Shown here: one piece after another, positions 1,677 through 27,624 of the stretch
Layout of the letters: every line of letters starts with the position of its first letter
Position numbering within the stretch: position 1 is the first letter of the stretch
Assembly (NCBI GenBank): GCA_035400625.1
Contig: DAOMZT010000001.1
Span: forward strand, 90,001-122,000
DNA: 32,000 nucleotides
Direction: 5' to 3'
Origin: an archaeon
GTDB taxonomy: Archaea; Iainarchaeota; Iainarchaeia; Iainarchaeales; CSSED10-239
Position numbers and translations under genes: made by a program
The notes under the pieces: model-generated
Told to the model about the DNA's origin: nothing
Seen by the model: the letters and a program-made list of their open reading frames with translations, nothing else
The model's database searches: none

Positions 1677-1682
1677 TAAATA

Positions 1683-3200: not shown

Positions 3201-3201
3201 A

Positions 3202-5220
3202 ATGGACTATATTGATTGGATAATTTCTAGTGTTTTATATGTAACAGTTATTGCACTAGTGCTTATTAGCTTATTTAATGTCATGCCTAAATCAAACAAT
3301 GATAATACAATAAGCGATTCACTCTACAAATCAACAATTTCACAAATTATCCCAATTTATAATGTTTCTATAAATACAAATGATTCAGAAATATACCCTT
3401 ATGTTATTTCAGACATTAATTTTGGCAGAGCAGGAAATATGTTTACAATAGATACAAACAATAATTTGCAATTTGGATTGATTTACGATAAAGATAGATT
3501 TTATAATTATGAAACTGACATTAATGCTTTATCATGCTTAGGAGTACAATTGCTATTAGAAAATTTTAATGATTATAATTATCAAGATACTTTTGATTTA
3601 AATTCAGGAACTGCTACGATAAAGTCAGGAATATTAGAACTTAATTCAGGAACAATTATTGATTCTACAATTGAACCAACTAGATATCTTGGCTCTTTTT
3701 TAACTAATGCAGAAGACATAAATGTGTATATTAATTTTGGTGATACAAGCGATATCTTTTATTGTAGTTTTAATGCAACAGGAGCGCAACTTTTTAAAAT
3801 TAGAGAAGAAGTAATTACAGAAAACAACACAACCCCTAAAATCACAAACTGGAGAAGACTAAATTTTGGATATTACAGAGATTTCAATGGATTGTCTTGG
3901 TTTTTCTGTGGGATAGACAATAACGCCAACCTCATAGAAACAAGTAGTGTGACTGCTCCAAAAAATGCCAAAATAAGAATAGAAGCAATTGAAGATCAAA
4001 CATATATTGATGATTTTATAATTTATAAAAGTTTGATAAATGCAATAGACTACAATGGCACAACCCTAAAAACCGATTCTTTAAAAACAACAATAACAAC
4101 TAACGAAGATATGAATGTGGATTTTTTTGTATTTACTGAAAATCAAGCAACAGAAGTATTAGAATATTCTCTGTCTTTTTCCAATCTGGGAGAACGCCTA
4201 AACAACCATAATGAAGAACCAATTAAAATTTTCTCAAATGATTTAAATCAAAACAAATTGGTTTTCTTTCCTATGGCTAAAGAATTTTGGATATATAAAT
4301 ATACAGGCGAAAACTCATTGACTATTAATTATAAACTTGTAGATTCATATCCTTCTAATTTCGGCTCTACTGCAGGAAATTGGCAATTTGCAGATTTAAA
4401 CAAATTATCTGGAAACTATGCTGTGCCAATATCTTTTGTTTCAGAAAGTTCTTTTGCTACAACAGATATTGTCTCTTTTGATATGAATTTTAATAAAGTC
4501 TTTTCAGAGATTACACCTGTTAGTGGTTCTGAAGCACCAACCATAAACTTTTGTAATTTTGATATTTGTACAGATATTACTAACGATTCTAATTTTGTAT
4601 ATAATATTGACACAAATATTGCAAACGTAATTTTTAAGTTCCCTGAAGAAATAGTTGCTAACCAACCATTTAATATCATAATTAATTTTAATTATTTAGG
4701 TTTAGAAAATATAGAAAATGTGGCAGGAGATATAATTCCTCTTGAAGGCACCCAACTTACAGCAAGAGAAACTTCTGAAGATATAAATATTAATGCTAGT
4801 AAATTATATCTGTATAATATCTTTAATCCAACTTACCCAGAAATCAAACAAACAATAATCTTTGATGTGTTTGACAACACAGGATTATATTCTCAAGATT
4901 GTAATTTTTCTATAGATTACAATTCTCACAACATAATCCTAAATTGCGATAAAAATTATCTGCTTAAAGTAAGATATAGATTTGCTGATTTAAATAACAC
5001 CATTCTAGAATATCCAAAACTTAATATTACAAAAACAAACGAAAGAATTGTAACTCAAGAACATTTTGAGAGCTTGTCTTGTGATTCTTATTTTGTAAAT
5101 ATTAAAAATAAAACACTAGATGTTAACTGTGGTATGGGAGTTAATCCAAATTACAAAACGCTAACAAAATATCTTCACAATAATGGATTACTAGAAAATG
5201 CAAACATATATATAAAATAA
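3202..5220 (+). CDS. hypothetical large N-anchored extracellular protein with a possible LamG/concanavalin-like lectin domain
   Basis: 672 aa. The start lies 1 nt after the previous stop. N-terminal hydrophobic segment IISSVLYVTVIALVLISLF. Residues ~115-277 end in QTYIDDFIIYKSL, resembling the terminal strand of LamG_3 domains. The protein is very Asn-rich. Confidence 0.6.
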   Translation: MDYIDWIISSVLYVTVIALVLISLFNVMPKSNNDNTISDSLYKSTISQIIPIYNVSINTNDSEIYPYVISDINFGRAGNMFTIDTNNNLQFGLIYDKDRFYNYETDINALSCLGVQLLLENFNDYNYQDTFDLNSGTATIKSGILELNSGTIIDSTIEPTRYLGSFLTNAEDINVYINFGDTSDIFYCSFNATGAQLFKIREEVITENNTTPKITNWRRLNFGYYRDFNGLSWFFCGIDNNANLIETSSVTAPKNAKIRIEAIEDQTYIDDFIIYKSLINAIDYNGTTLKTDSLKTTITTNEDMNVDFFVFTENQATEVLEYSLSFSNLGERLNNHNEEPIKIFSNDLNQNKLVFFPMAKEFWIYKYTGENSLTINYKLVDSYPSNFGSTAGNWQFADLNKLSGNYAVPISFVSESSFATTDIVSFDMNFNKVFSEITPVSGSEAPTINFCNFDICTDITNDSNFVYNIDTNIANVIFKFPEEIVANQPFNIIINFNYLGLENIENVAGDIIPLEGTQLTARETSEDININASKLYLYNIFNPTYPEIKQTIIFDVFDNTGLYSQDCNFSIDYNSHNIILNCDKNYLLKVRYRFADLNNTILEYPKLNITKTNERIVTQEHFESLSCDSYFVNIKNKTLDVNCGMGVNPNYKTLTKYLHNNGLLENANIYIK

Positions 5221-5227
5221 AACCTAA

Positions 5228-5392
5228 TCACATTATTGCCCTAAGAACAAGAACAAGAATTGCAATACCCAAAGACAAACCAATAACTGCCTCAGGAGTC
5301 AATTGTGGACCGGCCACAGATTCCTTGAATTTCATTATGCCTATAGCTGAACTTGGACCTTGATTTGTATTTTTAGAATATTTCATTTTCAT
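5228..5392 (-). CDS. secG: preprotein translocase subunit Sec61beta (archaeal SecG), 54 aa
   Basis: Own translation gives MKMKYSKNTNQGPSSAIGIMKFKESVAGPQLTPEAVIGLSLGIAILVLVLRAIM. It has the conserved G(L/I)M(R/K)F motif, a short linker and a single C-terminal TM tail-anchor. It falls below the ORF-track size cut-off. Confidence 0.8.
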   Translation of the reverse strand: MKMKYSKNTNQGPSSAIGIMKFKESVAGPQLTPEAVIGLSLGIAILVLVLRAIM

Positions 5393-5486
5393 AAATTTAT
5401 CACAATTTAAATAGAGCTATATATAATTAAAGAAACCAAAACCTTTTATATTAATCTATTTTATATTTTATTAGAGTTGAATTGGT

Positions 5487-6419
5487 ATGGCTGAGCAGAA
5501 AAAGCAATCAGAATATAAGTGGCTTGTAAGAATATTATTTCTATTAGTAATTATAATTGCAGCATTATTTGTATTTATATGGACAGGGACAATGAGATGC
5601 AGATCAATTCCTGGTGGCTGTAACATATATTGGAGCGTTATGACCTTAGTTACTGGTAAACAACAACCAAGTGTTCTTATATTATATGACCCAACTGATC
5701 AAAAAGGGCTGGGCAACCCTGAACTATTAAAAGATCTACTAACAGATAGAAAAGGGGTGGCAATACACCCAACTCTAGCAGATATTCGCTATCTTAATTC
5801 TGAACAATTAAAGAACGTAAGTCTTGTAATTGTAGAAAAATCCAGAAAGATTTCAACACTTCAATTAATGACTATGCTCAACTATATCTCACAAGGCGGA
5901 AGATTAGTTTGGATTGGAGATGCAGGAGTAGAGGCTGACACAGATAGAGGAGATATGCTATATGTTGGCCCAGAAAATGATAGAAACAATGGATGGGTAA
6001 GATTAACAGACACAAATAGAGTTATATTTTTTAACAGGGCTCTAGGGGTTAATTTTGTTACAAATTTCTGTGATGTAAGAGATTGCCATGTTGGAGATAA
6101 ATATACAGGTAAATTAATGCCAAGCTCTGATACCCACCCATTAGTTTATGGTTTAAAATCAAATCTCCCAATCTATGACAATTATTCTATAGTAACTTTG
6201 ATTGAACCAAATCCTGTTCCATTAAAGATAGATTTTGGATCGAATCTTAGAGATACTAAAAATCGTGCTTATGGAGACATATTTGATGCTATAGTTACAA
6301 GCAATTCAAATAGAGTTGCTTACTATGCTATTCCCCCAGAATATCTTGCAGAAGAAAGAGATGGAGATAACAAATATTATTCTATTGTTTATAACATGTT
6401 TGAAGGAATGGTAAATTGA
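5487..6419 (+). CDS. hypothetical N-anchored extracellular protein (possible GATase1/DJ-1-like fold)
   Basis: 310 aa with TM WLVRILFLLVIIIAALFVFIW. The stretch SVLILYDP...VSLVIVEK...ISQGGRLVWIGDAG is reminiscent of flavodoxin-like/GATase1-like membrane proteins, which is a weak call. Confidence 0.55.
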   Translation: MAEQKKQSEYKWLVRILFLLVIIIAALFVFIWTGTMRCRSIPGGCNIYWSVMTLVTGKQQPSVLILYDPTDQKGLGNPELLKDLLTDRKGVAIHPTLADIRYLNSEQLKNVSLVIVEKSRKISTLQLMTMLNYISQGGRLVWIGDAGVEADTDRGDMLYVGPENDRNNGWVRLTDTNRVIFFNRALGVNFVTNFCDVRDCHVGDKYTGKLMPSSDTHPLVYGLKSNLPIYDNYSIVTLIEPNPVPLKIDFGSNLRDTKNRAYGDIFDAIVTSNSNRVAYYAIPPEYLAEERDGDNKYYSIVYNMFEGMVN

Positions 6420-6420
6420 C

Positions 6421-6774
6421 ATGACAAAATCTTTTGAAGTCGCAATTTCTATAATCTTGCTTTTATTTTTTGTTTTTTTTTTATTTGAGGCAATAAATCA
6501 AAATAATTTTGAAAAACCAATACCTGATGAAATAAAAACCATAATCTTATTAGAAGCAAGAGACCCTGGATTTAGGGAGCTTGTCTCAAATTCAGAAGTT
6601 GATAATGTCTATTCTCTGCTTTATCCACAAATTGACTATAGATTTAATGTAAGCATTTGTGATTGGCTAAATAGTAATTGTGAAAATAAAGAATTAGATA
6701 ATTTCAAAAAGAAAAGAGAATATGTATATTTCTTTTCTGATACTAATAAAACCCTTCATATTGAATTAGATTAA
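6421..6774 (+). CDS. small pilin-like protein (non-canonical N-terminus)
   Basis: 117 aa. The start lies 1 nt after the previous stop. N-terminus MTKSFEVAISIILLLFFVFFLFEA is a short polar head plus a ~20-aa hydrophobic helix, like a type IV pilin, but it has Ser rather than Gly/Ala at the putative -1 position. Confidence 0.55.
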   Translation: MTKSFEVAISIILLLFFVFFLFEAINQNNFEKPIPDEIKTIILLEARDPGFRELVSNSEVDNVYSLLYPQIDYRFNVSICDWLNSNCENKELDNFKKKREYVYFFSDTNKTLHIELD

Positions 6775-6783
6775 AGGAGTTAG

Positions 6784-7269
6784 ATGATTTTGAATAAAGG
6801 ATTTACATATATTATAACTACAATGCTACTTATAATACTTATCAGTGGGGTTGTTATTGTTTCTAATTATAACAGCAACAAAAATAAAACAAATCCTGTA
6901 GCGACACTTGCAAAAAACTATGAAAACGAGTTCTTAAATATTTTAGAAACTGGTTCAACTGTTGAAGACATTAATTTGTTAAACTACAGATTTAAGAAAT
7001 TTATTAACAGCAACAACTATGATGCGAAAATCTGCAATCTTATTACTACAGAAAACGGCCTTATAGCAAGTAATTTTATGGACCAAAATTGCGATTTAAT
7101 AATAAATGGAGAAAAACGACAAACAATTACAGAAAACGACACAATTCTAACAGATATATTTATAAATGATACGAATATATATTTATGTAGCTGTCATTAC
7201 AAGGCAGGCGAGAATATCTATTATATAGATATCTATAATGAAAATTCAAAAACCATATTTAAAAACTAG
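6784..7269 (+). CDS. pilin-like protein with class III (prepilin) signal peptide
   Basis: 161 aa. N-terminus MILNKG|FTYIITTMLLIILISGVVIV fits the archaeal prepilin-peptidase pattern [KR][GA]|[hydrophobic][T/S/I...] followed by an uninterrupted hydrophobic helix. Confidence 0.6.
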   Translation: MILNKGFTYIITTMLLIILISGVVIVSNYNSNKNKTNPVATLAKNYENEFLNILETGSTVEDINLLNYRFKKFINSNNYDAKICNLITTENGLIASNFMDQNCDLIINGEKRQTITENDTILTDIFINDTNIYLCSCHYKAGENIYYIDIYNENSKTIFKN

Positions 7270-7278
7270 AGGAGATAT

Positions 7279-7630
7279 TATGAAAAACGTTACTGAACTT
7301 TTAAATAAAATAGAAGAAAAAACACACATAATTGTAGCAAAATTAGAAATATTAAGATTTGCAGAAGAAGATGTTCAAACCATTAAAAAATCATTAGAAT
7401 CAATTAAAAAGAAGCTTGAAGGTGGAGAAATAAGTAAATTTTCGTATGCTACTATGTTAGAATTAAACAAGAAAAGAGCAACAGAAAACACCAATTCTAA
7501 AAAGAAAACCTGGGATGAAATTGCAGAATCAATAAACGAAATAAGCGATTTATTAAATGAATTAAAAGATACATTCAATAGTAAAACTGAATTTGAAGGA
7601 ATTGATGAGATTAAAATAGACAAATCATAA
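7279..7630 (+). CDS. small coiled-coil protein
   Basis: The ORF-track frame 7238..7630 overlaps the previous gene. I prefer the internal ATG at 7279, which is preceded by GGAG (ctagaGGAGatattATG). The protein MKNVTELLNKIEEK... is K/E-rich and alpha-helical with no TM. Confidence 0.55.
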
Positions 7631-7660
7631 ATTATTTAAAAATAGAACATAAGATGGGCC

Positions 7661-9640
7661 ATGAAAATACCAAATCGAAAAGATACATCGAAACTTTATG
7701 ACCTAATTCTTAATCTTAAAAATATCGAAAACCAAAGAACTGCAAAAGAAAAAGAAATATTAGATAAATTTTATAATCAAGAAATAGATTCTAAAAAACT
7801 AGTTTTAAAATTAAAAAAAGAAAAACTATTTTCTAATTCTAAAAAGTTAGATTTAAAATTTATTAATGCGTTTCTGGAATATAGCAAACACTTAGAACAT
7901 ATATCAAAAAACATAAATGTAACTACAGTTAACAAATATAAATTAAGTAAAAGACCAGCTCCTTTTATTTTAGGGCTAAAAAAATTATTATCTCCTGGAA
8001 ACGCCAAAGAAATCAAAAAAAAGAAATCTGCAAAAACAAAAATAGTAGAAGTAAACCCAAGTGAGAAAAAACAACACAAAAATATATTACAGAGTTTTTT
8101 TAGAGATCGTAAGCATAAAGAAACAATCAAAATTACAGAAAATTTAAATCCTTTGCCTTCTTTTGAAGAACCAAAAGAACTGTTGCCTGAAAACTACCAA
8201 ATATTAATTGAAGGCTATGCATATGCATTTATTGAAGAAAAAGACGGAGTAAAAAGATATGTTGTTGCAGAACCAGAATTAACAGCAGCAGAAGAAAAAA
8301 TACTTACTGAGACAAAACAAGAGCTAATAAATAAAATATCGCTTATTGAAATAAAAGATGAATCAGAATTACTAAAAAGAATTGATAAAATATTTACTAA
8401 AAAAAAACTTACACCTCAACAGAAATCAAAAATAATGTATTATGTAGGCAGACAAATTAAAGGATTAGACATTATAGAACCACTAATGCACGACCCATTA
8501 ATTGAAGATATAGAATGTGATGGAACAGGCATCCCTATATTTATTGTTCATAGAAAATATGGGCATCTTGAAACCAATATATTATTTAAAGACGAGAAAG
8601 AATTACAACAGTTTGTAATTAAGATGGCACACTTAAGTAAAAGCTATGTATCCTATGCTAGCCCATTACTTGATTCTATTCTTCCTGATGGTTCTCGTGT
8701 TAATGCCATATTGACAAGTAATGTTTCAACTAGAGGACCAACATTTACAATCAGAAAATTCCCACAAAAGCCATTAACTGCAATTGATTTAATTAATAGT
8801 GGCACATTAAACCCTATGCTTGTTGCTTATATTTGGACAATTATGGAATACCAAAAAAATGCATTAATTATTGGTCCAACTGCTGGTGGTAAAACAACAT
8901 TATTAAATGTCATTACTTCTTTTATCCCACCAGGAAAAAGAGTTGTTTCAATTGAAGATACTAGAGAAATAAATTTGCTTTTAGATAACTGGGTTCCACA
9001 AATTACTAGGCCTGGATTTGGACCACCAGATGGCACAGGTAAAAAATACGGGGAAGTTACGATGCTTGATCTTATTAAAGAATCTTTCAGACAAAGACCA
9101 GATTATTTAATTGTAGGAGAAGTTAGAGGAGAAGAGATGTCTGTCATGTTTCAAGGTATGGCATCTGGTCACTGTTGTTTATCTACAGTTCACGCAAAAA
9201 GCTTAACAGACCTTGTAAACAGGCTTATAACGCCTCCAATTTCTCTTGAACCAGCACTATTAACTTCTCTTGACCTTGTTATTATTACTGGCTTTGAAGG
9301 TAGTAGCGATATAAAAAGAACAATTAAAGAATTAGATGAGATTAAAGGATTTAATACTAAAGATAATAAAATAGAATATACAGCAATTTACAATGTTTAT
9401 GATAAACCTCAAAAAAAGGAAGGAGATTTATTCACGCACGAACTACCAATAACCTACAAAAGTGAAATTTTACAATCTATTGCAAAAGAATATAATATAA
9501 ATATCAATAGTTTATTAGATATGATAAACAAAAGAATCAAATTTATAGAAGAATTAACAAAGAATCCACCAAAGGATTATGTTGAATTTAAAATAGCAAT
9601 CAATAAATACAAATCACAAGAAAAAACAATTACTAATTAA
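7661..9640 (+). CDS. type II/IV secretion-system ATPase of the archaeal FlaI/ArlI-PilB-VirB11 family, with a ~175-aa Lys-rich N-terminal extension
   Basis: 659 aa. Walker A is GPTAGGKTTLLN, followed by IEDTREI, Walker B/Asp box RPDYLIVGEVRGEE and His box GHCCLSTVHA. The family-typical N-domain motif RYVVAEPELTAAEEKIL begins near residue 198. Confidence 0.9.
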   Translation: MKIPNRKDTSKLYDLILNLKNIENQRTAKEKEILDKFYNQEIDSKKLVLKLKKEKLFSNSKKLDLKFINAFLEYSKHLEHISKNINVTTVNKYKLSKRPAPFILGLKKLLSPGNAKEIKKKKSAKTKIVEVNPSEKKQHKNILQSFFRDRKHKETIKITENLNPLPSFEEPKELLPENYQILIEGYAYAFIEEKDGVKRYVVAEPELTAAEEKILTETKQELINKISLIEIKDESELLKRIDKIFTKKKLTPQQKSKIMYYVGRQIKGLDIIEPLMHDPLIEDIECDGTGIPIFIVHRKYGHLETNILFKDEKELQQFVIKMAHLSKSYVSYASPLLDSILPDGSRVNAILTSNVSTRGPTFTIRKFPQKPLTAIDLINSGTLNPMLVAYIWTIMEYQKNALIIGPTAGGKTTLLNVITSFIPPGKRVVSIEDTREINLLLDNWVPQITRPGFGPPDGTGKKYGEVTMLDLIKESFRQRPDYLIVGEVRGEEMSVMFQGMASGHCCLSTVHAKSLTDLVNRLITPPISLEPALLTSLDLVIITGFEGSSDIKRTIKELDEIKGFNTKDNKIEYTAIYNVYDKPQKKEGDLFTHELPITYKSEILQSIAKEYNININSLLDMINKRIKFIEELTKNPPKDYVEFKIAINKYKSQEKTITN

Positions 9641-9642
9641 AT

Positions 9643-10947
9643 TTACTTAAAGGGGTCTCTTCTATTAAACAGATATTCTGGATCTATCTCTTTTGATTTT
9701 GTATTTTGTTTTGGTTTCTTTTTTATTTTGATTTTCTTTGCTAAGGTAATGCCAACAAGAATTACAATAGTTGCAACAATGATATAAATAAAATATTTTG
9801 TGAAGTCGTGTGTTTCTATCTCTTTAACTCCTGTTTCTTTTATTTTTTTAACTTGGGTTTTAGCAAGTTTTATCTTGCTAATGCTTTCTTCATATCTGCC
9901 CTTGTTATATAGTTCCTTTATTTGAGAATAATTTTGACTTAGTTCTGATACTGTTTTTGCATCTTTCCATAAATTTAAATTTTCTGAACTTAATATTTGG
10001 TTTATTGAATTATCCAAGGTTCCTTTTAAGTCAGCACTATAGTTATATAGCAAAGATTTTGCAATATAATAATTTTGTCTGGTCTCCAGAGTTTGTTGTA
10101 AGATCTCTAATGGGCTATTTGGTCCTGCTTTTTCAAAGTCAGCAATCACCAGAGAATAGAACTGATTTGTTGATGCGAGGCTATCTGTTATTGTAGCAAT
10201 ACTACTATTTAAGTTGCTTGGTGCTTCGATATAGCTCATTATTATCTTTTTTGTGGTTTCATCTAATTTTTTATCAGCAACTACTACTTCTACAATCTCA
10301 TTTGTCGAATCGCGGTAATTTACTGAAGAAGAAACAATGTCGTTATAGCCTTTAAATGTGTTTTTATATGATAATATCAAACTATCTGTTTTTGTACAGT
10401 CAGTAGTGTCTAAAAATACAGATTGTTCTTTTTGTAATTTACTAAGCTTTGTTTTCATATCTTGTAATTGATTGATTAATAATTCTAATTTGTCTTTTGT
10501 ATTTTGACATTTTGCAGTTATTGAAGAAGAGTAATTTGACTTGATTATTCCTTCTATTTTTGCAGATTTTGATTGCAAAATAATATTTAAATTATCTATC
10601 TTATCAATTAATTGCTGAGATAAATAGTTATTCCCGCTTTTGGTTTTTATGTTTCTATTAAGTAAAGCAGTTTTAATGATATTTTGGGTGCTGGTATTTC
10701 TCTCGTAGCTTACAGAGCCGTCATTGGATTCTATAGGCAAAAACAGCACAATGTTTGATTCTGAATCAACAATATTTAGTGTATAATACTCGTGATTATC
10801 GCAATTAATATAATAAACACTGCCAGGATCTAAATATTCGTTTTGCAACATATATTCTTTTGCAATATCCTGTGCAGAATATAAAGAAATGGCATGCGCC
10901 AAAGGAATAATTAACAATAAAAATATAATTGCTATAATTTTTTTCAT
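9643..10947 (-). CDS. hypothetical secreted type-I membrane protein (signal peptide, PepSY-like head, long helical region, C-terminal TM plus basic tail)
   Basis: 434 aa. Signal peptide MKKIIAIIFLLLIIPLAHA|IS. The head is AQDIAKEYML...YYTLNIVD. The middle is coiled-coil-like (LELLINQLQDMKTKLSKLQKEQ). The C-terminus is YFIYIIVATIVILVGITLAKKIKIKKKPK. There is a 4-nt overlap with the upstream gene. Confidence 0.6.
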   Translation of the reverse strand: MKKIIAIIFLLLIIPLAHAISLYSAQDIAKEYMLQNEYLDPGSVYYINCDNHEYYTLNIVDSESNIVLFLPIESNDGSVSYERNTSTQNIIKTALLNRNIKTKSGNNYLSQQLIDKIDNLNIILQSKSAKIEGIIKSNYSSSITAKCQNTKDKLELLINQLQDMKTKLSKLQKEQSVFLDTTDCTKTDSLILSYKNTFKGYNDIVSSSVNYRDSTNEIVEVVVADKKLDETTKKIIMSYIEAPSNLNSSIATITDSLASTNQFYSLVIADFEKAGPNSPLEILQQTLETRQNYYIAKSLLYNYSADLKGTLDNSINQILSSENLNLWKDAKTVSELSQNYSQIKELYNKGRYEESISKIKLAKTQVKKIKETGVKEIETHDFTKYFIYIIVATIVILVGITLAKKIKIKKKPKQNTKSKEIDPEYLFNRRDPFK

Positions 10948-11918
10948 TCTTCCTCTTTTTTAAATATTTTATCAAACAGATATATTGTTACAGCAAATAT
11001 TAAAAAAACTATTGATAAGCTTGTATAAGCCAAAGATGAAATCACTAATGCAAAGAAAAACGCAAAGTTGCTTTCTATAAACCCAATAAACGGAATTGAT
11101 TTTATAGCATCGATTATTTTAACTTTAATAACTGGCGCATCAAGCTCAGGCATTAGTTCTTTTATTTCTTCGGGTGTTTTATTTGCTGCTGCAGAGTATT
11201 TTATGTTTTCCATAAAATCCGTAAAGTCAGAAGATGTTTCGTCTGTTTTTGATCTTAATGCAGAATACTCTTTAGATTCCATAATAAATTTTAAATTGGA
11301 CAAGGTACATTGCTGGTTAATTGTGTAAGATGCACTAATCCAAGGATCCAAATCATCAGCAACAAACAAATTTACTAGACCTGCTTCAAATTCCTCAACT
11401 TTTTTACTTTGTTCTGGAAGAATATACAATACAGAAGAGATAAACAATCCAATAACTAAAAAAATAGTTAATTTAGATAGGTAATTTGTTGTTTGGTTAA
11501 ACATGTTTTTTTCTGATGTTTTTTTAGCTATCAAACACAAGATAATGTGTGCTAAGATATACAATATTAAAAACAAAACAAAATAAATTTTAATTTTTAA
11601 AAAAATGATTGCAAAAATCAAAGACAAAAACAAACTAATACCAACTACAATTAAACTTTCTTCTTTTATAGAGTTGTAAATGATTGCTAAAATAATTATT
11701 GAGGTTATTGGGAAAAAAATTGCAAAAAGCAGGAAATTTAGAGAAAATATAGAGTTAAGTATTGTCGCCAAATCAAATACTCTAAATGCATAAACTGTTA
11801 GTTTGGAAGATATCAAAAAATAAATCCAAAAAAAAGAAGACATAGCTACAATTAATATTTTTAAAAGCAATTTCGAATTAAATCCAACTGCTCCTTTCTT
11901 ATTTATCATAAATCCCAC
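10944..11918 (-). CDS. hypothetical polytopic membrane protein with a ~100-aa soluble loop
   Basis: 324 aa (GTG at 11918, alternative ATG at 11909). About five N-terminal TMs are followed by an acidic soluble segment (EEFEAGLVNLFVADDLDPW...TPEEIKELMPELD) and C-terminal TM(s). No family was recognised. Confidence 0.55.
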   Translation of the reverse strand: MGFMINKKGAVGFNSKLLLKILIVAMSSFFWIYFLISSKLTVYAFRVFDLATILNSIFSLNFLLFAIFFPITSIIILAIIYNSIKEESLIVVGISLFLSLIFAIIFLKIKIYFVLFLILYILAHIILCLIAKKTSEKNMFNQTTNYLSKLTIFLVIGLFISSVLYILPEQSKKVEEFEAGLVNLFVADDLDPWISASYTINQQCTLSNLKFIMESKEYSALRSKTDETSSDFTDFMENIKYSAAANKTPEEIKELMPELDAPVIKVKIIDAIKSIPFIGFIESNFAFFFALVISSLAYTSLSIVFLIFAVTIYLFDKIFKKEEE

Positions 11919-19893: not shown

Positions 19894-20541
19894 TTATATA
19901 AGGCTTATAAAGAAAATTAAAGCCATTAACAATAAAGTTAATGCAATCTTGTAGATTGGTTTTTTAACTTTAAATCCAATTTCTGTAAACTCGTAAAGCA
20001 TTATTATCCAATAAACAATCATGAATATTGTTAATAAAAATAATAATATTAAGCCAATTGTGTTTGCGAATGTTAATTCTGGGAATAGTGTTGTGCTATT
20101 TATTAAATTTGGGTTAACTGCAAGCATTTGAAGAGAAGAAATCAATGATGGAAATAATATAAAGACAATCAATGTGCAAAGAATTGTGTAGATGATTGAT
20201 GTTGCTCTAAATGCAGCAATTGTAGAAAGAACTTTTTCATAAGGTCTTTTTGGAAGATCTTTTTGCCCTCTTATAAAGTACATTATTAGAAAGATTGCTA
20301 AGCCTAAGAGTAGCCATGTTAGAATAACTCCTGTTAGAAACTGATTAAGTATATAAAAGCCTATATCTTGGCCTTTTAATAGCAAATAAATCAAGATATT
20401 AACAATAATTGCAAAAAGAACAATCAATATGCTTTCTCTTATATTTATTTTATTATAGAAATAATCAATTATTGCTTTTGGTCCTCTTTTAGGCTTATAG
20501 ACCTCTGGTAAGTTAGTTTCAGTTTTTCTAGCTACAGACAT
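19894..20541 (-). CDS. hypothetical 5-TM membrane protein (possibly Yip1-like)
   Basis: 215 aa. A polar N-terminal head is followed by about five hydrophobic helices. The family assignment is a guess based on size and topology only. Confidence 0.5.
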   Translation of the reverse strand: MSVARKTETNLPEVYKPKRGPKAIIDYFYNKINIRESILIVLFAIIVNILIYLLLKGQDIGFYILNQFLTGVILTWLLLGLAIFLIMYFIRGQKDLPKRPYEKVLSTIAAFRATSIIYTILCTLIVFILFPSLISSLQMLAVNPNLINSTTLFPELTFANTIGLILLFLLTIFMIVYWIIMLYEFTEIGFKVKKPIYKIALTLLLMALIFFISLI

Positions 20542-20627: not shown

Positions 20628-20655
20628 AAAAAATAATGAAGCAAGAAATGCTTGC
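20628..20655 (-). terminator. weak hairpin plus oligo-T downstream of the pilin-like gene pair
   Basis: On the minus strand, GCAAG-cattt-CTTGC is followed by ttcattaTTTTTT, ~30 nt after the stop at 20686. The stem is only 5 bp. Confidence 0.3.
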
Positions 20656-20685
20656 CTCATCTAGATCTTGGAGAATAGATTTTAT

Positions 20686-21489
20686 CTATGGTCTTGGGGT
20701 TGGGGGTCTTACTGACCCACCACCTATATCTTCTTCTCTGCCTATTGGATCTATTGGGTCTGCTGATACCTTATTTTTTATATAGTTTCCAACAAAGATA
20801 TCGCTATCTTCATATCCTTCTTTAACAGCTATTGCTTTGAGAGTGGTGGTTTGGGTAATTTGTATTGCTTTTCCCCCTCCTTTAAATTCTGAACTTGCTG
20901 TTGTTGGTGTAGACCCATTTGTAGTATAATAGATTGTTGCACCTTTTGTTGCACAACTTAATGAAACAGATATAGAGCTATTAAACAACCCTGGTGCAGG
21001 GTCTGCTGTCGGGGTTTCTACTTTTAATCTTTTTGCGTTTGTGTTTGAGATGTTTTCCAAATTTATATATTTATTATCTGAAGTTATTAGAACAACAGTT
21101 ACTTTTGAATCTGCAACACCAAGATCAAAAAAATTTTCTAAATCAAAAGTATTAACTCCTTCTTCTAAAATTAGTGGTGTGTTAAATGTTTTTTCTTCAC
21201 TTTCTTTATTTTCTGAAATAATTTTGTATTTTGTAATTTCTATGTTTTGTGATTCTAAATCTGCTGGTGGGCTATACCTAAATTTAACAACCCCAGCATC
21301 TATTTTTTCTGGATAAACAAAATCGCTTGCATTATATTTTGTTTCAGTTACTGTTTGGGCTTGGTTTACTCCTTTGTCTGTGTAGCCACGACCCCAACTT
21401 AGTAATATTCCTCCTAAAATTACAGCAACAAAAACTAAAAGTACAGTTATGATTATTGCTGATACTCCTTTATTATTTAATTTTTTCAT
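20686..21489 (-). CDS. archaeal type IV pilin-like protein (class III signal peptide) fused to a chitobiase/beta-hexosaminidase C-terminal-like domain
   Basis: 267 aa. N-terminus MKKLNNKG|VSAIIITVLLVFVAVILGGILLSWG matches the archaeal pilin/archaellin N-terminal domain. Residues ~160-237, PGLFNSSISVSLSCATKGATIYYTTNGSTPTTASS...TTTLKAIAVKEGYEDSDI, match the CHB_HEX_C-type pattern. The tail is Pro-rich. Confidence 0.75.
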   Translation of the reverse strand: MKKLNNKGVSAIIITVLLVFVAVILGGILLSWGRGYTDKGVNQAQTVTETKYNASDFVYPEKIDAGVVKFRYSPPADLESQNIEITKYKIISENKESEEKTFNTPLILEEGVNTFDLENFFDLGVADSKVTVVLITSDNKYINLENISNTNAKRLKVETPTADPAPGLFNSSISVSLSCATKGATIYYTTNGSTPTTASSEFKGGGKAIQITQTTTLKAIAVKEGYEDSDIFVGNYIKNKVSADPIDPIGREEDIGGGSVRPPTPRP

Positions 21490-21496
21490 ATTTTAT

Positions 21497-23107
21497 CTAA
21501 TCTCCTGTATTAAATATTAAATAAGGATAACCATTATTTTTGTTTGGATCAATTGCCCAAACATTTGTAAAATCCCAACCAACATAAGTTTGTTGTTGTT
21601 TCATTTCTTCTGTTGTTTTTGGGGCTCCTTTGCCAGTATCTGATTGCTCAGAAGTATTTGTATCATATACTGAATAATAAATATCGCTTGCATTACCACC
21701 TCCAACAAACCCCCCGACATTTGAAACACCAGTCACCCTGCCAGCTGAGAAAGAATAATAAATATAGCCACTAGGAGTAGGTGGAAAACCCATACCACTT
21801 CCAATTTTGTTCATACCCACTAATCCACCAACATAATCATTTCCTGAAACCTCACATAAAGAATAGGAATTATAAATTTTTCCTCCATTTATTCCAATTG
21901 TACCACCAACATAGTTTCCAGAACTAGTAATTGATCCTTTTGAGTGTACTTTGCTTATAATGCCTTTATTGTCGCCAACAATGCCTCCAACATTGTCTCC
22001 ATTTGAATTAATAATTATATTTGAATTACTATTTTCAATATTGCCAAAATTTCTTCCAATTAATCCACCAGCATAAGCTCCACTAGAATTTATCTGCCCA
22101 GTGAAACTTGAAAAATTTAAATCTCCACCAATTGAATTAAAACCGCCATAAGTGTTTTTTCCAACTAATCCTCCCACGTAACTTTCTCCATTAATTGTGC
22201 CTGAAGAATGAACATTAGAAATTATAGCATACATTGCAAAATTTGCAGCAATACTTCCTACATTTTGATTGCCAGTAATATTTACATCTTTTAAAATTAA
22301 ATTTTTTATTTCTATAGTTTTTCCTTCATTATATGCTACAAATCCAAAAAGCCCAATATTATCGTTATCTGTATTTATATATAGATTACTTATTGTGTGA
22401 TTTTGACCATCAAAAATGCCATTAAAACCATTTTCAAAATCAGTGCCGATTGGCTCCCAGCCCTCTTCTTCTCTTCTTGAATAACATTTAAGATCTATGT
22501 CTTTTCCAAGAACGTAATTTGCATCAAGATTTAACCTTACTGCATTTAAGTCATCTGCATTACATACTACTATCGGGTCTTCTTCTGTACCAGTACCACC
22601 AGAAGAACAAACCATGTCTGGATCTCTAACACTAATATCTATGTATTTGTAATCAGCTGTTATTAGCTTTAAATCTACCTTGTCTTTAACACTATGCTCA
22701 TATAAACAATCAAGCACCAAAACATTTTGAGAATTTGCAGAAAAAGTAAATGGCGTCTCAAGTTGTATTGGTTCCATGCCTGAAACATTTGCAATCTTAT
22801 AACCAGTAATTGTTATTTCTTTATCTTCAATATCTGCAGGAGGATTATAATTAAATAACAATACTCCATTTTGCATCTCTTTTGGATAAATAAAGCTTTC
22901 AGCATCTGAAACAGTAAAATTGTCTATATCATTAGTTCTTTCAAGGCTCTTGTTTGTGTGTTCCCGACCAAAAGATAATATCAATAGAACTAAAATTGTA
23001 GAAATTACAATTAGAATTATTACTGTAACAATCGGTGTTATACCTCGTTGTTTGATATTTTTAGAAATATTAGTCATATTAATCGAATTATTATAAGCTA
23101 AAAACAT
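21497..23107 (-). CDS. archaeal type IV pilin-like protein (class III signal peptide) fused to a GLUG-repeat adhesin-type domain
   Basis: 536 aa; the true start is probably the ATG at 23077 (MTNISKNIKQRG|ITPIVTVIILIVISTILVLL). The middle is PIVVCNADDLNAV...YVLGKDIDL...WEPIG..FNGIFDGQNHTISNL...GLFG. Repeated (Y/N)VGG(L/I)VG units follow. The C-terminus is YVGWDFTNVWAIDPNKNNGYPYL. Confidence 0.75.
   Translation of the reverse strand: MFLAYNNSINMTNISKNIKQRGITPIVTVIILIVISTILVLLILSFGREHTNKSLERTNDIDNFTVSDAESFIYPKEMQNGVLLFNYNPPADIEDKEITITGYKIANVSGMEPIQLETPFTFSANSQNVLVLDCLYEHSVKDKVDLKLITADYKYIDISVRDPDMVCSSGGTGTEEDPIVVCNADDLNAVRLNLDANYVLGKDIDLKCYSRREEEGWEPIGTDFENGFNGIFDGQNHTISNLYINTDNDNIGLFGFVAYNEGKTIEIKNLILKDVNITGNQNVGSIAANFAMYAIISNVHSSGTINGESYVGGLVGKNTYGGFNSIGGDLNFSSFTGQINSSGAYAGGLIGRNFGNIENSNSNIIINSNGDNVGGIVGDNKGIISKVHSKGSITSSGNYVGGTIGINGGKIYNSYSLCEVSGNDYVGGLVGMNKIGSGMGFPPTPSGYIYYSFSAGRVTGVSNVGGFVGGGNASDIYYSVYDTNTSEQSDTGKGAPKTTEEMKQQQTYVGWDFTNVWAIDPNKNNGYPYLIFNTGD
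21685..22360 (-). repeat. about seven tandem GLUG-type peptide repeats (protein level)
   Basis: Repeats are GLFGFV, NVGSIAANF, YVGGLVGKN, YAGGLIGRN, NVGGIVGDN, YVGGTIGIN, YVGGLVGMN and NVGGFVGGG, spaced ~20-30 aa apart. Confidence 0.65.
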
Positions 23108-24618: not shown

Positions 24619-25647
24619 CTATAAAAACAAAATAAAGCCTAAAATACAAACTGCGACCTCTACAAGGAGAATGCCACAAGTGACTTGCTTTTCTGTAAAG
24701 CGTTTTTTAAATAAAGTAGGGAGAAACATCATTATGTGTGTCCAAGAATAAATGCGTTTATAAGGCATCTTTAGTGTCCCGTCCTCTTGGAGATCACCAA
24801 GGCTTCTGACCTTTAATTTCCCTCGTAGTTTCAGAATTATTTCAATACCCCAAGGAATAAAAATAAATAAAGCAAAACTCTCAATATTTCCAATTATAGC
24901 AATGCTTGCAAAAGTTGCACCAAAAAGATAAGTCAATGAATCTCCAGGAAGCATCTTTGCAGGATACCAGTTATTTAGAAGATAAGGAATTAATGCAAAC
25001 AAAGCAACAAACGAGATAATTGCAGCTTCTGTTCTGCCATTAATAATTGAAAAGATGCCTAGAGAGATCATGACTATTGCCATTAGCCCCCCCTCTAAAC
25101 CATTAGCACCTGCAAGCATATTTGTTGAGTTTGTTATAACCACAAAAAGGATTGGAACTATTAAAAGAGCATAAAACACTCCAAAATTAACAGTGCCAAT
25201 AAAAGGGATACCCATTGTAGAGTCCCCTGCCATTATTGCAATCAAAGGGGTTGCTGCAAGAATAGTTAAAAGAGGCTTTAGCCATTGTGGAAGCCCAACC
25301 CTAATCTCTAAGTCCCCATAAATGTTCTTTACTGGTTCTTTACTAATATTTATATCATCAAAAAAGCCAATTAATGTTGCAATTAAAATTGAAAGAGTTG
25401 TTGCAATTATCAAAACTACGTCTGTATGAAAATAAAAAGTAGAAAGCAAAACAAAGAACATAATGCCAATTAGAAAGCCAAAAAATACTGGCATACCACC
25501 TGATTGTGGCAAAGTTGGCTTTTCTTTCTTTTGCTGATCAACAGCAATTATTCCCCTAGTCACAAAGAATTTTTTAAATTGCGTTATCGCAAAAAAAGAC
25601 GCAATAAATGAAACTAAACAACTTAATATCAAGATTAGATAGTTCAT
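24619..25647 (-). CDS. aglH: UDP-GlcNAc:dolichyl-phosphate GlcNAc-1-phosphate transferase-like (glycosyltransferase family 4, MraY/WecA/AglH type)
   Basis: 342 aa, polytopic. It has GFFDDINIS (DD Mg site) and NSTNMLAGANGLEGG (archaeal N.NMLAG.NGLE motif). Confidence 0.85.
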   Translation of the reverse strand: MNYLILILSCLVSFIASFFAITQFKKFFVTRGIIAVDQQKKEKPTLPQSGGMPVFFGFLIGIMFFVLLSTFYFHTDVVLIIATTLSILIATLIGFFDDINISKEPVKNIYGDLEIRVGLPQWLKPLLTILAATPLIAIMAGDSTMGIPFIGTVNFGVFYALLIVPILFVVITNSTNMLAGANGLEGGLMAIVMISLGIFSIINGRTEAAIISFVALFALIPYLLNNWYPAKMLPGDSLTYLFGATFASIAIIGNIESFALFIFIPWGIEIILKLRGKLKVRSLGDLQEDGTLKMPYKRIYSWTHIMMFLPTLFKKRFTEKQVTCGILLVEVAVCILGFILFL

Positions 25648-25656
25648 TTTATTTTC

Positions 25657-27624
25657 CTAGTTTAATTTGTCCTTATTAACTTTGTAAACTCTTACATCTC
25701 CAGATGAATAGACAAGCTCCATAAAAGGCTCAATTGTCGTATCATTAAACCAAACTCTTGCAAATATTGTTTTATTTATCGCAGCATTTATTAAATAAAT
25801 CCTTGAGTTGTCTTTTTCTTTATAAAGATATACAGGCAACCCCTGCATTATTTGGTCAGGCACTGTGTGATACTCAGTTTTTATTTTTACCATCTCTTCT
25901 TCAGGTAATACATTTCCTTGACAGTTATAGCTTACAGCTCCTGATATTGGTGTAACAACTTTAGAACAGCCAAGACCTATGCCTGTATATTTTGTAACTC
26001 TAGGATCACTAAAGTTAGTAGTCCAATAACCATAAACTGCAAAAGAAGACATTCTGGTTAGATAAGATGATTCTGTCATTACAAAATCAGCATCATATTC
26101 CTTTAACATCTCTTTTGAAAAATTAAGATCTTCAGAAATCAAAAACATACCAAAATCTTTTGTGCCTTCAGCATATGCGTTTGTGTTATCTGTGCTTACT
26201 TTTCGTTCAGTAAAATATGCTATCCAGTGTCCAGAATCCCACCAATTAAAGATTTTAGCATTCTCTGAAGAATTATCTTTTACCCAAAACATTGCATTTT
26301 GCCAATTCTTTTCTTCAACAATTGGAGGGACCTTGCTCATGACAAAGAAACTACCAGCAGCAATTGCACCTATTAAGAAAATTGCAGAGATAATTGTTAA
26401 TGTTCTTTTATAAGCTAAAGATTTATTTTGTATCGTTTCTGTTGCTAAGAAAAACAAGAAACCAAATCCTGCAGCAATTGGCAATCCTAAAGTATAAGTA
26501 AACTTTAGTTTTGTCCAAGCCATAAACCCTGTAATTAATATCCAGAAGAAAATTATCAAAACAAAATAATCAATATTGTCATGTTTATGATCATTGTCTT
26601 CTTTTTCTTTGTTTTTGTATTTTCCAAATATCAAATATAACGGAATTACTAGTAAAGCCAAAAACGGAATAACCACTAAAAGACTATACTTTTCCAAAAA
26701 GAATTGCTTACCAGTATTTTCTTCACCAACTGTTGCTCCAATCACATCTTCTTGAGCAACATTTACTTTGTTTATTCTGTCTATGTTGTCTGTAGAGATT
26801 GGCAAATAATTTGTAACATACTCTGATGTTCTCTTTATCCACCTTGTTCCACTATACATAGTAGTAACAATTGTGAACAACAAAAAACAAGTCAAAAATA
26901 CTTTTGAAAAAGCAAGTATTTCTTTTTTGTCTATTTTCTTTATGGCCATGTATACTAACATGGTTCCAAAATAAGAAACCAGCACCAAAGGAATTAACAA
27001 AAACATATCCCAGGTTATTGCCATCAAGAAAAAGAAAAACGCACCTACTATTGAATATATTAACCAGTTCTTTAATTTATGTCTGTTTTGTATAGCCATT
27101 ACTAAGAATATAAAACCTAAGACTAGCCACAAGAAACCTAAAGAATCTTCTTCAAAAAAACCACCCATTGTTCTATAAACAAAAGCAGGAACTGTTGCTG
27201 CCATTACTCCCATAGCAACACCTGTTCTTGTGTTATACATTTTCTTACCTAAGAAAAACATGGCTACAGAAATTAAGGCACCAAATATTGCAGGAAGCCA
27301 TCTTGCATATTCCATCAATAACCATTTATTATAGGGCGCTCCAAAAGTAGTTATTGTATAGATTGCTGCTGTAAAATACCACAAGAAATTTGGCCAGCCA
27401 CTATATTTTGTCCCGCCTTGCTGATAGAAACCTAATGGATCATTTGCTGGGAGATCTCCTTGAACAACATAGCCTGTTGCTCTAAGATGCCAATAAGGGT
27501 CATATTCAAACATATACTCGTATCTTAGAATATGCGCTCTTATTGCAAGTCCCAACACAAAAATCAAAACCGCAATCAAAATTACTAACCAATATTTGGA
27601 AAAAAAATTCTTAATCTTCTTCAT
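25657..27624 (-). CDS. aglB: dolichyl-(mono/pyro)phosphooligosaccharide-protein glycotransferase AglB (STT3 family)
   Basis: 655 aa. About 13 N-terminal TMs are followed by a soluble C-domain. The WWDxG motif is present as NWWDSGHWIAY, and there is an early acidic loop YEYMFEYDPYWHLR. Confidence 0.9.
   Translation of the reverse strand: MKKIKNFFSKYWLVILIAVLIFVLGLAIRAHILRYEYMFEYDPYWHLRATGYVVQGDLPANDPLGFYQQGGTKYSGWPNFLWYFTAAIYTITTFGAPYNKWLLMEYARWLPAIFGALISVAMFFLGKKMYNTRTGVAMGVMAATVPAFVYRTMGGFFEEDSLGFLWLVLGFIFLVMAIQNRHKLKNWLIYSIVGAFFFFLMAITWDMFLLIPLVLVSYFGTMLVYMAIKKIDKKEILAFSKVFLTCFLLFTIVTTMYSGTRWIKRTSEYVTNYLPISTDNIDRINKVNVAQEDVIGATVGEENTGKQFFLEKYSLLVVIPFLALLVIPLYLIFGKYKNKEKEDNDHKHDNIDYFVLIIFFWILITGFMAWTKLKFTYTLGLPIAAGFGFLFFLATETIQNKSLAYKRTLTIISAIFLIGAIAAGSFFVMSKVPPIVEEKNWQNAMFWVKDNSSENAKIFNWWDSGHWIAYFTERKVSTDNTNAYAEGTKDFGMFLISEDLNFSKEMLKEYDADFVMTESSYLTRMSSFAVYGYWTTNFSDPRVTKYTGIGLGCSKVVTPISGAVSYNCQGNVLPEEEMVKIKTEYHTVPDQIMQGLPVYLYKEKDNSRIYLINAAINKTIFARVWFNDTTIEPFMELVYSSGDVRVYKVNKDKLN

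Follow-up and report, generated by a model that had tools for sequence, protein, structure and literature searches.

Tandem genes of a DPANN archaeon encode proteins with a shared pilin-type module and divergent, strain-variable heads

Most DPANN archaea, which are ultrasmall, depend on a host, and their partner recognition and attachment are poorly understood. The window analysed here, a 32-kb stretch of an Iainarchaeota genome, contains two neighbouring genes on the minus strand that raise the question what kind of proteins begin with the same pilin-type module and then continue into entirely different domains. Both open reading frames were recovered where the original prediction, made from the bare sequence, had placed them. 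Gene B (21497..23107) encodes a protein of 536 aa in which a class III signal and a pilin module precede a GLUG/IgA1-protease-NTD-like beta-helix head, and gene A (20686..21489, 267 aa) combines a class III signal and a pilin module with a CHB_HEX_C_1/Fn3_assoc head and a Pro-rich tail. Translation of gene B probably starts at M11 (nt 23077), as in the JGI gene call, which would shorten the protein to 526 aa. The stop of B and the start of A are separated by 7 nt, and directly past the stop codon of A a hairpin with a T-run can be read from the sequence (20628..20660, minus strand), which looks like the terminator of a bicistronic B-A unit. The two genes are probably co-transcribed.

The N-terminal modules of A and B align in BLASTP with 48/145 identities (33%) and an E-value of 7e-17 (residues 2-144 of A, 16-158 of B), and no significant similarity is found by BLASTP beyond this region. 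The significant alignment on which the predicted paralogy depended is thus present, as is the complete divergence past the module. The predicted module size of about 120 aa has to be corrected: it spans about 150 aa with the helix, about 95 aa of which form the beta-sandwich. On the minus strand, the module occupies 21025..21489 in gene A (aa 1-155) and 22598..23077 in gene B (aa 11-170), comprising in the latter the leader, a hydrophobic helix and the beta-sandwich.

Both proteins carry the archaeal type IV pilin signal, in which a short, basic leader (K/R at position -2, G/A/S at -1) leads into a hydrophobic helix of some 20 residues or more. Protein A starts with MKKLNNKG/VSAIIITVLLVFVAVILGG, where the slash marks the predicted cleavage site behind G8, after which the chain begins with VSAII. 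In protein B (...KQRG/ITPIVTVIILIVISTILVLL), cleavage of the leader MTNISKNIKQRG is predicted between G22 and ITPIV. The two signals proposed originally, NKG/VSAII and QRG/ITPIV, match the motif of the whole family described below, in which K/R occupies -2 in 90%, A/S/G -1 in 97%, I/L/V +1 in 99%, S +2 in 82% and P +3 in 86% of the sequences. Curated profile cut-offs were missed by A on Pilin_N (PF07790; 15.5 vs 25.2 bits) and by B on TIGR02537 (15.3 vs 20 bits), and Pilin_N is matched at E<=1e-3 by 12 of 97 family members. An NCBIfam scan (E<=1) gave no match of A or B to the bacterial prepilin cleavage/methylation motif (IPR012902/TIGR02532). A prepilin peptidase, likewise a premise of the original prediction, is encoded in the genome: the Peptidase_A24 protein P0379 shares the contig of gene A (JGI Ga0116249_10000002, 813,239 bp), and a Peptidase_A24 gene directly adjoins a family member in the relative L005/L007. 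P0379 was reached through cluster members; the first peptidase candidate, P0319, belongs to another organism and was dropped.

An AlphaFold model of the A module (pLDDT 84.8) shows a helix at residues 7-48 and a seven-strand beta-sandwich at 58-149. Its sole Foldseek match at E<=1e-3 is the archaeal pilus subunit 8fk7 of Pyrobaculum calidifontis (E=1.2e-5 over 148 columns), with modest TM-scores of 0.42/0.47. The same subunit is also the best match by sequence, and all seven PDB sequence matches to the module are archaeal pilins or archaellins. Stand-alone complete pilins of 147-159 aa furthermore align across most of the module. Judged by sequence comparison and the predicted fold, the module constitutes an entire type IV pilin of the archaeal kind, and A and B both show the arrangement by which Raynaud et al. 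(2021) define modular pilins, with a pilin module at the N-terminus and a non-T4P domain at the C-terminus.

Domain searches support the head assignments made from the sequence, a CHB_HEX_C-like domain with a Pro-rich tail in A and a GLUG-repeat domain in B. The head of A (20794..21000, minus strand, aa 164-232) is an Ig-like domain matching CHB_HEX_C_1 with an E-value of 2e-22 as well as Fn3_assoc, and is putatively carbohydrate-associated. An AlphaFold single-sequence model of full-length A drops below a pLDDT of 50 after residue 151, so that its head is unusable. The head of B (21500..22597, minus strand, aa 171-536) is a GLUG-repeat beta-helix with Glug matches in three stretches (E=9e-7) and a Peptidase_M26_N match (E=2e-7); it shares homology with the N-terminal domain of IgA1 proteases from streptococci, a domain without catalytic function.

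The combination of one module with alternative heads extends far beyond this locus. A word-index homologue search with the N-module of B alone returned as its single match a frameshifted copy of the same locus, so that an exhaustive HMMER search was needed, and a profile scan of contigs built on a 10-sequence sub-alignment is biased by its pattern PLIATILLI and misses A/B-like N-termini. The exhaustive HMMER search yielded 222 representatives with total lengths of 56-1271 aa, all with the module at the extreme N-terminus, in a family centred on Iainarchaeota. Their heads, the largest of which reach 1129 aa, fall into 41 Pfam families, with lectin, propeller, beta-helix and Ig types in the majority. 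The genes often stand in tandem arrays, the largest comprising 6 genes, and within these arrays the modules share 32-54% identity and the heads 3-27%. The original view of one pilin-type N-module with alternative C-terminal heads therefore holds for the locus and across the family of 222 representatives, and the survey of related genomes that it suggested does turn up paralogues with other heads.

Comparison with the near-identical strain L002 places the variability within the heads. In a hypervariable island of gene B (21612..22486, minus strand), DNA identity to this otherwise 100%-identical strain falls to 10-80%, with indels; the island has the conserved module on one side and the last ~45 aa, likewise conserved, on the other. 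In an island covering head and tail of gene A (20664..21131, minus strand), identity falls to 55-92%. At the protein level, the B module is identical in 160/160 positions and the A module in 147/153, compared with 76/109 for the A head. The flanks retain 98.6-100% protein identity, the collapse being confined to 22486-21612 and 21131-20664. Both B alleles are present in several samples.

In four relatives (L005/L007, L012, L013 and L021), family members were verified as targets of diversity-generating retroelements (DGRs). These DGR-linked members carry Lcl_C or FGE-sulfatase heads with a variable region (VR) at the 3' end and are accompanied by a template repeat (TR), bAvd and a reverse transcriptase (RT). 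Mismatches between TR and VR lie at template adenines in 17/19-20, 20/20, 18/18 and 12/14 cases. Locus L023 contains RT fragments, yet no TR/VR pair was detectable there. For A and B themselves, neither RT nor Avd occurs in the window, and no internal repeat of their head regions was found. A local DGR or pilS-like mechanism was considered for the pair and rejected, as no silent donor cassettes or template repeat for their heads were found in the window and the substitutions are not adenine-specific.

The pilin fold, the class III motif, the 41 head families, the tandem arrays and the head-restricted strain replacement together support reading A and B as modular type IV pilins of a DPANN (Diapherotrites/Iainarchaeota) archaeon with swappable heads for attachment, and we hold this reading with moderate confidence. 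An A24 prepilin peptidase is predicted to remove the short basic leader ending in K/R-G, which would expose the hydrophobic N-terminal helix followed by the Ig-like beta-sandwich of the complete pilin module. The module would then act as carrier, anchored in the membrane and most likely inserted into a type IV pilus-like filament, either at its tip or at scattered positions along it, with the GLUG beta-helix of B and the CHB_HEX_C Ig-like domain of A displayed outward. The ~370-aa beta-helix head may be hard to fit inside a filament body. The heads would be both the ligand-recognition and the fast-evolving parts. Across the family, their variation would arise by domain shuffling among paralogues, by tandem gene amplification, by inter-strain allelic replacement, for which the conserved module and C-terminal cap would serve as recombination anchors, and by DGR hypermutation where the heads have the C-type-lectin fold. 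The proteins are likely to provide variable attachment, be it to host cells, to other microbes or to surfaces of polysaccharide. For A and B, signal cleavage, polymerisation, filament position, ligands and the ATPase used are what we infer in this proposal, as is direct adhesion by the heads, which is deduced from domain types and head-restricted diversification.

The machinery assembling such a filament was sought in the same window. The ATPase 11 kb away that the original prediction named as a possible assembly factor is real: encoded at 7661..9640 on the plus strand, it is of FlaI/PilB type and a candidate assembly motor, scoring 337 bits to the FlaI model (equivalog cut-off 550). Its link to the assembly of A and B is weak. 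Housekeeping genes separate it from the pair, and none of the other full-module loci has an ATPase of this type within 10 kb. What support there is comes from other DPANN phyla, where orthologous ATPases adjoin T2SSF platform proteins and short pilins of the same N-terminal type. Upstream of the ATPase, two small plus-strand genes encode proteins with pilin-like N-termini, MTKS/FEVAISIILLL (6421-6774) and MILNKG/FTYIITTMLL (6784-7269), which on their sequence are possible minor pilins or accessory proteins. Candidates for a platform protein or peptidase at 10944-11918, 19894-20541 and 5487-6419 were tested and found unsupported. An ATPase of L045 that lies 3.4 kb from three paralogues was rejected as evidence of linkage, being of a divergent type (E=8e-31) with opposite-strand genes in between.

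This genomic setting feeds the strongest alternative, namely that A and B do not polymerise at all but work as membrane-anchored adhesins, with the helix, cleaved or not, as tether in the cytoplasmic membrane and the beta-sandwich as stalk of a head kept at the cell surface. Neither a T2SSF platform protein nor a short major pilin was found in the 32-kb window, A and B sit among housekeeping genes far from any T4P locus, heads of up to 1129 aa are bulky, and most cellular DGR targets are membrane-anchored binders (Roux 2021, PMC8144416). The isolation of the pair is, however, what is normally seen for archaeal stand-alone pilin genes, which lie distant from their machinery (PMC4858521). A complete pilin module homologous to short stand-alone pilins, a class III motif far stricter than a simple anchor requires, and a prepilin peptidase that is present in the genome and adjoins a family member elsewhere likewise speak against it, and we regard a purely anchored adhesin as unlikely, if worth serious consideration.

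A second alternative takes A and B as parts of a bindosome-like short pseudopilus, built by a FlaI/BasE-like ATPase for substrate capture rather than cell adhesion. The ATPase at 7661-9640 does score 226 bits to the model of the bindosome ATPase BasE, and class III proteins with diverse C-terminal domains have been proposed in a TFF structure (10.64898/2026.04.22.720090), but this score is far under the cut-off and exceeded by that to the FlaI model. Neither head is a substrate-binding domain of the ABC type, the window shows no ABC transporter linked to the pair, and DGR hypermutation and strain head swapping better suit changing macromolecular targets than nutrient capture, which makes a bindosome quite improbable here.

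Public annotation suggests secreted or surface enzymes instead, as NCBI lists A as 'chitobiase/beta-hexosaminidase C-terminal domain-containing protein' and B as 'ZmpA/ZmpB/ZmpC family metallo-endopeptidase-related protein', implying a chitobiase-related glycosidase and a ZmpA/B/C-related metalloprotease. The matches behind these names are confined to the non-catalytic CHB_HEX_C_1 domain and the Peptidase_M26_N/IgA1-protease N-terminal beta-helix, and neither a glycoside hydrolase (GH20) nor an M26 catalytic domain was detected in A or B, the head of B included, so that we give an enzymatic role very little credence. An identity of A and B with FlaF/FlaG of the archaellum, which the JGI name of A ('FlaG/FlaF family flagellin (archaellin)') and the FlaI-like ATPase might suggest, can practically be discarded, given no archaellin or FlaG match in Pfam for either protein, an ATPase short of the FlaI equivalog cut-off, a window lacking FlaH, FlaJ and other archaellum genes, and an architecture with 41 different heads that is unlike FlaF/FlaG.

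Taken as modular pilins, A and B point to a concrete and testable attachment apparatus for DPANN archaea, a conserved pilin carrier that can present dozens of binding domains, with variability located exactly where ligand recognition is expected. That heads are reshuffled, swapped between strains or hypermutated in related genomes suggests a variable toolkit for holding on to other cells or to surfaces. The chitobiase-related, metalloprotease-related and FlaF/FlaG names in public databases obscure the true nature of these proteins, and a profile of the module would open the way to a systematic catalogue of DPANN adhesin repertoires, with targets for cryo-ET, glycan-array and co-culture experiments. 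The module family also ties archaeal DGRs to a defined cell-surface structure. A wider claim, which we put forward tentatively and at slightly less than an even chance, is that the family forms a general display scaffold of Iainarchaeota-type DPANN, made of T4P tip or minor subunits whose interchangeable heads are renewed by paralogue shuffling, inter-strain cassette replacement and, for C-type-lectin heads, DGRs. If true, this would be the archaeal counterpart to the diversification of phage tail fibres or the antigenic variation of pili, used to track host-cell surfaces, and would reveal what the N-terminal part of archaeal DGR targets is, an open question in Roux et al. (2021).

The closest bacterial counterparts are the modular pilins of Streptococcus sanguinis, of which PilB bears a vWA module and PilC a lectin module (Raynaud et al. 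2021, PMC8179133). Bacterial modular pilins occur in many architectures, commonly with concanavalin-like lectin heads, and their proposed role is to have these modules displayed by the filament, probably at its tip (PMC8179133). The A/B family shares with them the small N-terminal pilin module with class III signal and the C-terminal functional or adhesive module. Unlike them, it is archaeal, its signal follows the archaeal pattern [KR][GAS]/hydrophobic-S-P and not the N-methylation motif of bacteria, and its module consists of a helix plus an Ig-like sandwich. The survey of Raynaud et al. relied on IPR012902, never mentions archaea and describes neither tandem arrays nor strain swapping confined to the heads nor a coupling to DGRs (PMC8179133). 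Solved archaeal pilins such as 8fk7, 6w8u of P. arsenaticum and 6nav of Sulfolobus islandicus share the N-terminal helix and globular beta-sandwich, but they are single-module proteins of ~130-145 aa with 10-17% identity and TM-scores of 0.35-0.47 to the module.

Episymbiotic CPR Saccharibacteria, likewise ultrasmall and host-dependent, have been shown experimentally to use T4P for host recognition and attachment, according to the abstracts of PMC9894109 and PMC11623550. These pili are a functional analogue for DPANN within a bacterial system, and the two abstracts report no modular head repertoire like that of the A/B family. DGR variable proteins whose variable regions have the C-type-lectin fold, such as Mtd of Bordetella phage, TvpA of Treponema and archaeal AvpA (PMC5006420, PMC8144416), resemble the relatives with Lcl_C/FGE-sulfatase heads; A and B themselves differ, as the window contains no DGR. 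A recognisable transmembrane or conserved domain is typically absent from the targets of archaeal DGRs (Roux 2021, PMC8144416), whereas the N-terminal part of the targets within the A/B family is identified here as a type IV pilin module. A 2026 survey of archaeal TFF describes class III display proteins, proposes their insertion into TFF and notes beta-helical heads (10.64898/2026.04.22.720090). The A/B proteins agree with these and with the Sulfolobus bindosome proteins in placing a class III signal and hydrophobic helix before an extracellular functional domain. They depart from both in having a complete globular pilin domain between helix and head, in belonging to DPANN, in bearing heads of adhesin, lectin or propeller types rather than ABC substrate-binding domains, and in concentrating their variability in these heads. 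The A/B family is classed here as a variant of known proteins, the modular pilins of bacteria and the class III display proteins of archaea.

The two genes predicted to encode pilin-adhesins were confirmed on the minus strand, where ORF B (23107-21497, 536 aa) precedes ORF A (21489-20686, 267 aa) with a gap of 7 nt. BLASTP of A against B revealed a common N-terminal module in which 33 % of 145 aligned residues are identical (E=7e-17), confined to the N-terminal ~155 residues. As proposed, the C-terminal heads differ: A carries CHB_HEX_C_1 (E=2e-22) and Fn3_assoc domains followed by a Pro-rich tail, while B carries Glug repeats and a Peptidase_M26_N region. By sequence, the B head matches the beta-helix that forms the non-catalytic N-terminal domain in streptococcal IgA1 proteases (7uvl, 7uvk, 6xja). 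Domain-model scans of both proteins detected no catalytic domain. Public names are chitobiase-domain protein or FlaF/FlaG for A, and ZmpA/B/C-related or GLUG-containing for B.

The surrounding window is low in GC (~30 %) and encodes FtsZ, Spt5, L11, family B DNA polymerase, Nre, TBP, AglB and 5S rRNA. A hairpin and T-run lie directly 3' of the A stop codon and the TATA-like box found there belongs to the next gene, which together with the short intergenic gap makes B-A look like a bicistronic unit. The JGI annotation starts B at M11, giving 526 aa and a 12-residue leader. Directly downstream of A, a polytopic 215-aa membrane protein without family match (19894-20541) is conserved in all syntenic contigs, with a promoter-like box of its own. 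The region 24619-27624, 1.5 kb from the pair, encodes an AglB/STT3 oligosaccharyltransferase as well as a GT4 glycosyltransferase. Archaeal pilins are usually N-glycosylated, and A and B, with 4 and 12 N-X-S/T sequons respectively, may be modified likewise. A low-coverage copy of the locus (L001, ENA ERZ2647878, coverage 0.42) has its genes broken by frameshifts, and the sole word-index match, P0001, is an artefact of that assembly.

Several lines of evidence identify the shared module as a complete archaeal type IV pilin. A PDB sequence search with a two-sequence profile returned archaeal pilins or archaellin-like proteins in 7/7 matches, aligned via the N-terminal helix. AlphaFold prediction from a 36-sequence alignment gave a confident model (pLDDT 84.8) in which residues 7-48 form a helix and residues 58-149 a beta-sandwich of seven strands, and for which the sole Foldseek match in the PDB at E≤1e-3 was 8fk7, the archaeal type IV pilus subunit of Pyrobaculum calidifontis (E=1.2e-5, 148 aligned columns). 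The next matches at E~1e-2 were again archaeal pilins or archaellins (6w8u, 9eq7, 6nav, 8tib); Foldseek TM-scores were modest at 0.42-0.47. Neither A nor B reaches the curated cut-off of Pilin_N or TIGR02537; the class III signal motif is canonical throughout the 104 family members (K/R at -2 in 90 %, A/S/G at -1 in 97 %, I/L/V at +1 in 99 %, S at +2 in 82 %, P at +3 in 86 %; median leader of 10 residues). Stand-alone pilins of 147-159 aa from short-pilin triplets of Iainarchaeota match the module over most of its length (HMM positions 7-134, E 1e-17 to 1e-20), showing that it is a pilin that has acquired heads. A conserved Cys in an 'L.C.P' strand and a Cys at the module end (alignment columns ~140 and ~175) occur in many family members, among them B (cysteines C134, C167, C182 and C208) and not A, a pattern that suggests disulfide stapling of the module in one family subgroup.

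An exhaustive HMMER search of 1.84 billion representatives yielded 222 family proteins at E≤1e-3, of which 21 reach E≤1e-30, with the module at the extreme N-terminus of proteins of 56-1271 aa. A Pfam scan of 97 members distinguished 41 head families, including Glug (24), CHB_HEX_C_1 (11), Lcl_C (11), Laminin_G_3 (10), RCC1 propellers (9), DUF5122 (6), DUF5018 (5) and FGE-sulfatase (4) besides HINT, pentaxin and Kelch. In a scan of species-representative genomes, full-module genes came predominantly from Iainarchaeota/Diapherotrites, among them the complete Ca. Forterrea multitransposorum genome; Woese-, Nano- and Aenigmatarchaeota gave helix-only matches. The module HMM, run against every ORF of the 86 sources retrieved (1.09 Mb), picked out 60 full-module ORFs, frequently in tandem arrays of six (L036, L008), three (L020, L037, L043, L045) or two genes (several loci including the window). 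Within arrays, modules share 32-54 % identity and heads 3-27 %, many heads being concanavalin-like lectin domains. The six-gene array at L036:1531-6937 contains an exactly duplicated gene pair (432+467 aa, then 431+467 aa; maximum pairwise identity 1.00), indicating a very recent tandem duplication. On a 671-kb Iainarchaeum contig, one family gene (L009:10001-11010) is split into ORFs of 100 and 233 aa (module positions 4-95 and 101-146) either by pseudogenisation or by a frameshift in the assembly. Contigs binned as 'Methanosarcinales' (L053, L054, L059, L063, L067, L074, L076, L078, L080, L081, L083) also encode pilin N-termini with a PLIATILLI helix of the DPANN type, reflecting either mis-binned DPANN or pilin sharing between DPANN and putative methanogen hosts.

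Heads are also replaced between close strains, as seen in L002, a syntenic contig from a different sample whose flanking proteins are 98.6-100 % identical to those of the window (PolB 99.6 %, Nre 100 %, AglB 100 %). In B the module is unchanged (160/160) while the head retains 201/349 identities in an alignment with 82 gap columns. The orthologue in L002 measures 584 aa. The final ~45 residues of B are identical, so the replaced part is the central GLUG region. In A, the module matches at 147/153 and the head at 76/109 positions. At the DNA level, identity to L002 is 100 % from the upstream flank through the B module into the first part of the B head (24286-22487), drops to 10-80 % with indels in the B head (22486-21612), returns to 95-100 % over the last part of B and the bulk of the A module (21611-21132), falls to 55-92 % in the A head and tail (21131-20664) and is 98-100 % in the downstream flank below 20664. 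Both B alleles were found in multiple independent assemblies. The window contains no donor cassette or template repeat for the heads, and an adenine bias is absent among the substitutions between window and L002. Heads are likely swapped via homologous recombination, for which the conserved module and the C-terminal cap would serve as anchors.

In relatives, heads are targeted by complete diversity-generating retroelements (DGRs) comprising bAvd, reverse transcriptase and template/variable repeats (TR/VR). P0151, consisting of the module and an Lcl_C head, is followed in L005 (2719-6678) and L007 (711-4670) by bAvd, reverse transcriptase and Peptidase_A24 in that order, the inserted cassette separating SRP54 from the A24 prepilin peptidase. 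The 104-bp VR lies at the 3' end of the gene with the TR downstream, and 17/20 and 17/19 mismatches, respectively, fall on template adenines. The corresponding values are 20/20 over 118 bp for a Ca. Forterrea gene with an FGE-sulfatase head (L012:9974-13821), 18/18 over 118 bp for L013:177-3397 and 12/14 over 121 bp for a second Forterrea locus (L021:9959-13835). This targeting is strong, independent evidence that the family heads are ligand-binding surfaces.

A genome devoid of prepilin peptidase, leaving the N-terminal helices as uncleaved anchors, would have spoken against the original prediction. None is encoded within the 32-kb window, so we queried with the Peptidase_A24 adjoining the family member in L005 and listed the cluster members. 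P0379 (Peptidase_A24) lies within 716,270-733,106 of the JGI contig Ga0116249_10000002 (813,239 bp), in a conserved SRP54-A24-TGT order, and gene A within 268,779-271,582 of the same contig, so the processing enzyme is encoded in the genome and the prediction is not refuted on this count. P0376 (HNW05824.1, HPV66503.1) stems from the same two MAG series as protein A (HNW05761.1, HPV65932.1). A related organism encodes an Lcl_C-domain protein that starts ~5.4 kb downstream of the gene for the A24 peptidase (L094:12237-12828, L095:12393-12828), a possible further modular pilin or DGR target. Two Peripla_BP_6 substrate-binding proteins with N-terminal hydrophobic anchors (MKTKNKNWLIAIVAIVIIALILVIA...), which may be class III signals of the bindosome type, are encoded near the peptidase in L097 (1137-2252, 3167-4384).

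The FlaI/PilB-like ATPase at 7661-9640 (T2SSE E=4e-32; 337 bits with the FlaI model, whose cut-off is 550 bits), proposed to assemble A and B from 11 kb away, is separated from them by housekeeping genes. The operon also encodes two small proteins whose N-termini resemble those of pilins. True orthologues of the ATPase (E~1e-115) reside in compact T4P loci of Aenigmatarchaeota, Woesearchaeota and other DPANN, together with 2-3 short pilins whose N-termini are of the KGISPLIATILLIA type, two T2SSF platform proteins and accessory proteins like the 6421-6774 product. This ATPase type thus serves pilins of that N-terminal class. No T2SSF platform protein was found in the window, whereas the orthologous loci always carry two, and among the 60 full-module ORFs from 86 sources no further full-module locus lies ≤10 kb from this ATPase type. 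Archaeal pilin genes often stand alone, and ATPase/TadC pairs can serve differing pilin sets (Makarova et al. 2016, PMC4858521), so the distance is no evidence against a link, and the ATPase is a plausible candidate motor for A and B. Across its operon (840-9640), unannotated proteins with an N-terminal hydrophobic helix are encoded at 1683-3200, 3202-5220, 5487-6419, 6421-6774 and 6784-7269, for which the other fetched loci contain no detectable homologues.

The original prediction is confirmed in its observation and supported in its modular-pilin interpretation. The best explanation is that A and B belong to a family of pilin carriers displaying variable binding heads on the DPANN surface, and we infer filament incorporation, tip location, ligand identity and ATPase assignment for both. 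In the literature searched, we found no description of such a DPANN family, its head repertoire, strain-level head replacement or DGR coupling, nor any paper combining 'diversity-generating retroelement' with 'type IV pilin' (Paul et al. 2017 lying outside it). DPANN attachment and archaeal DGR targeting hereby become concrete, testable questions. DPANN pilus components have been described as too diverged for recognition (Makarova et al. 2019), and archaeal DGR targets as typically lacking a recognisable transmembrane or conserved domain, a question left open by Roux et al. (2021, PMC8144416). Proteins that couple an archaeal class III signal to a functional domain have a precedent in the bindosome, an idea generalised in a 2026 preprint (10.64898/2026.04.22.720090). 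Modular pilins are established in bacteria (Raynaud et al. 2021, PMC8179133); that survey, however, was limited to the bacterial IPR012902 signature and does not mention archaea, whereas the family of A and B is archaeal.
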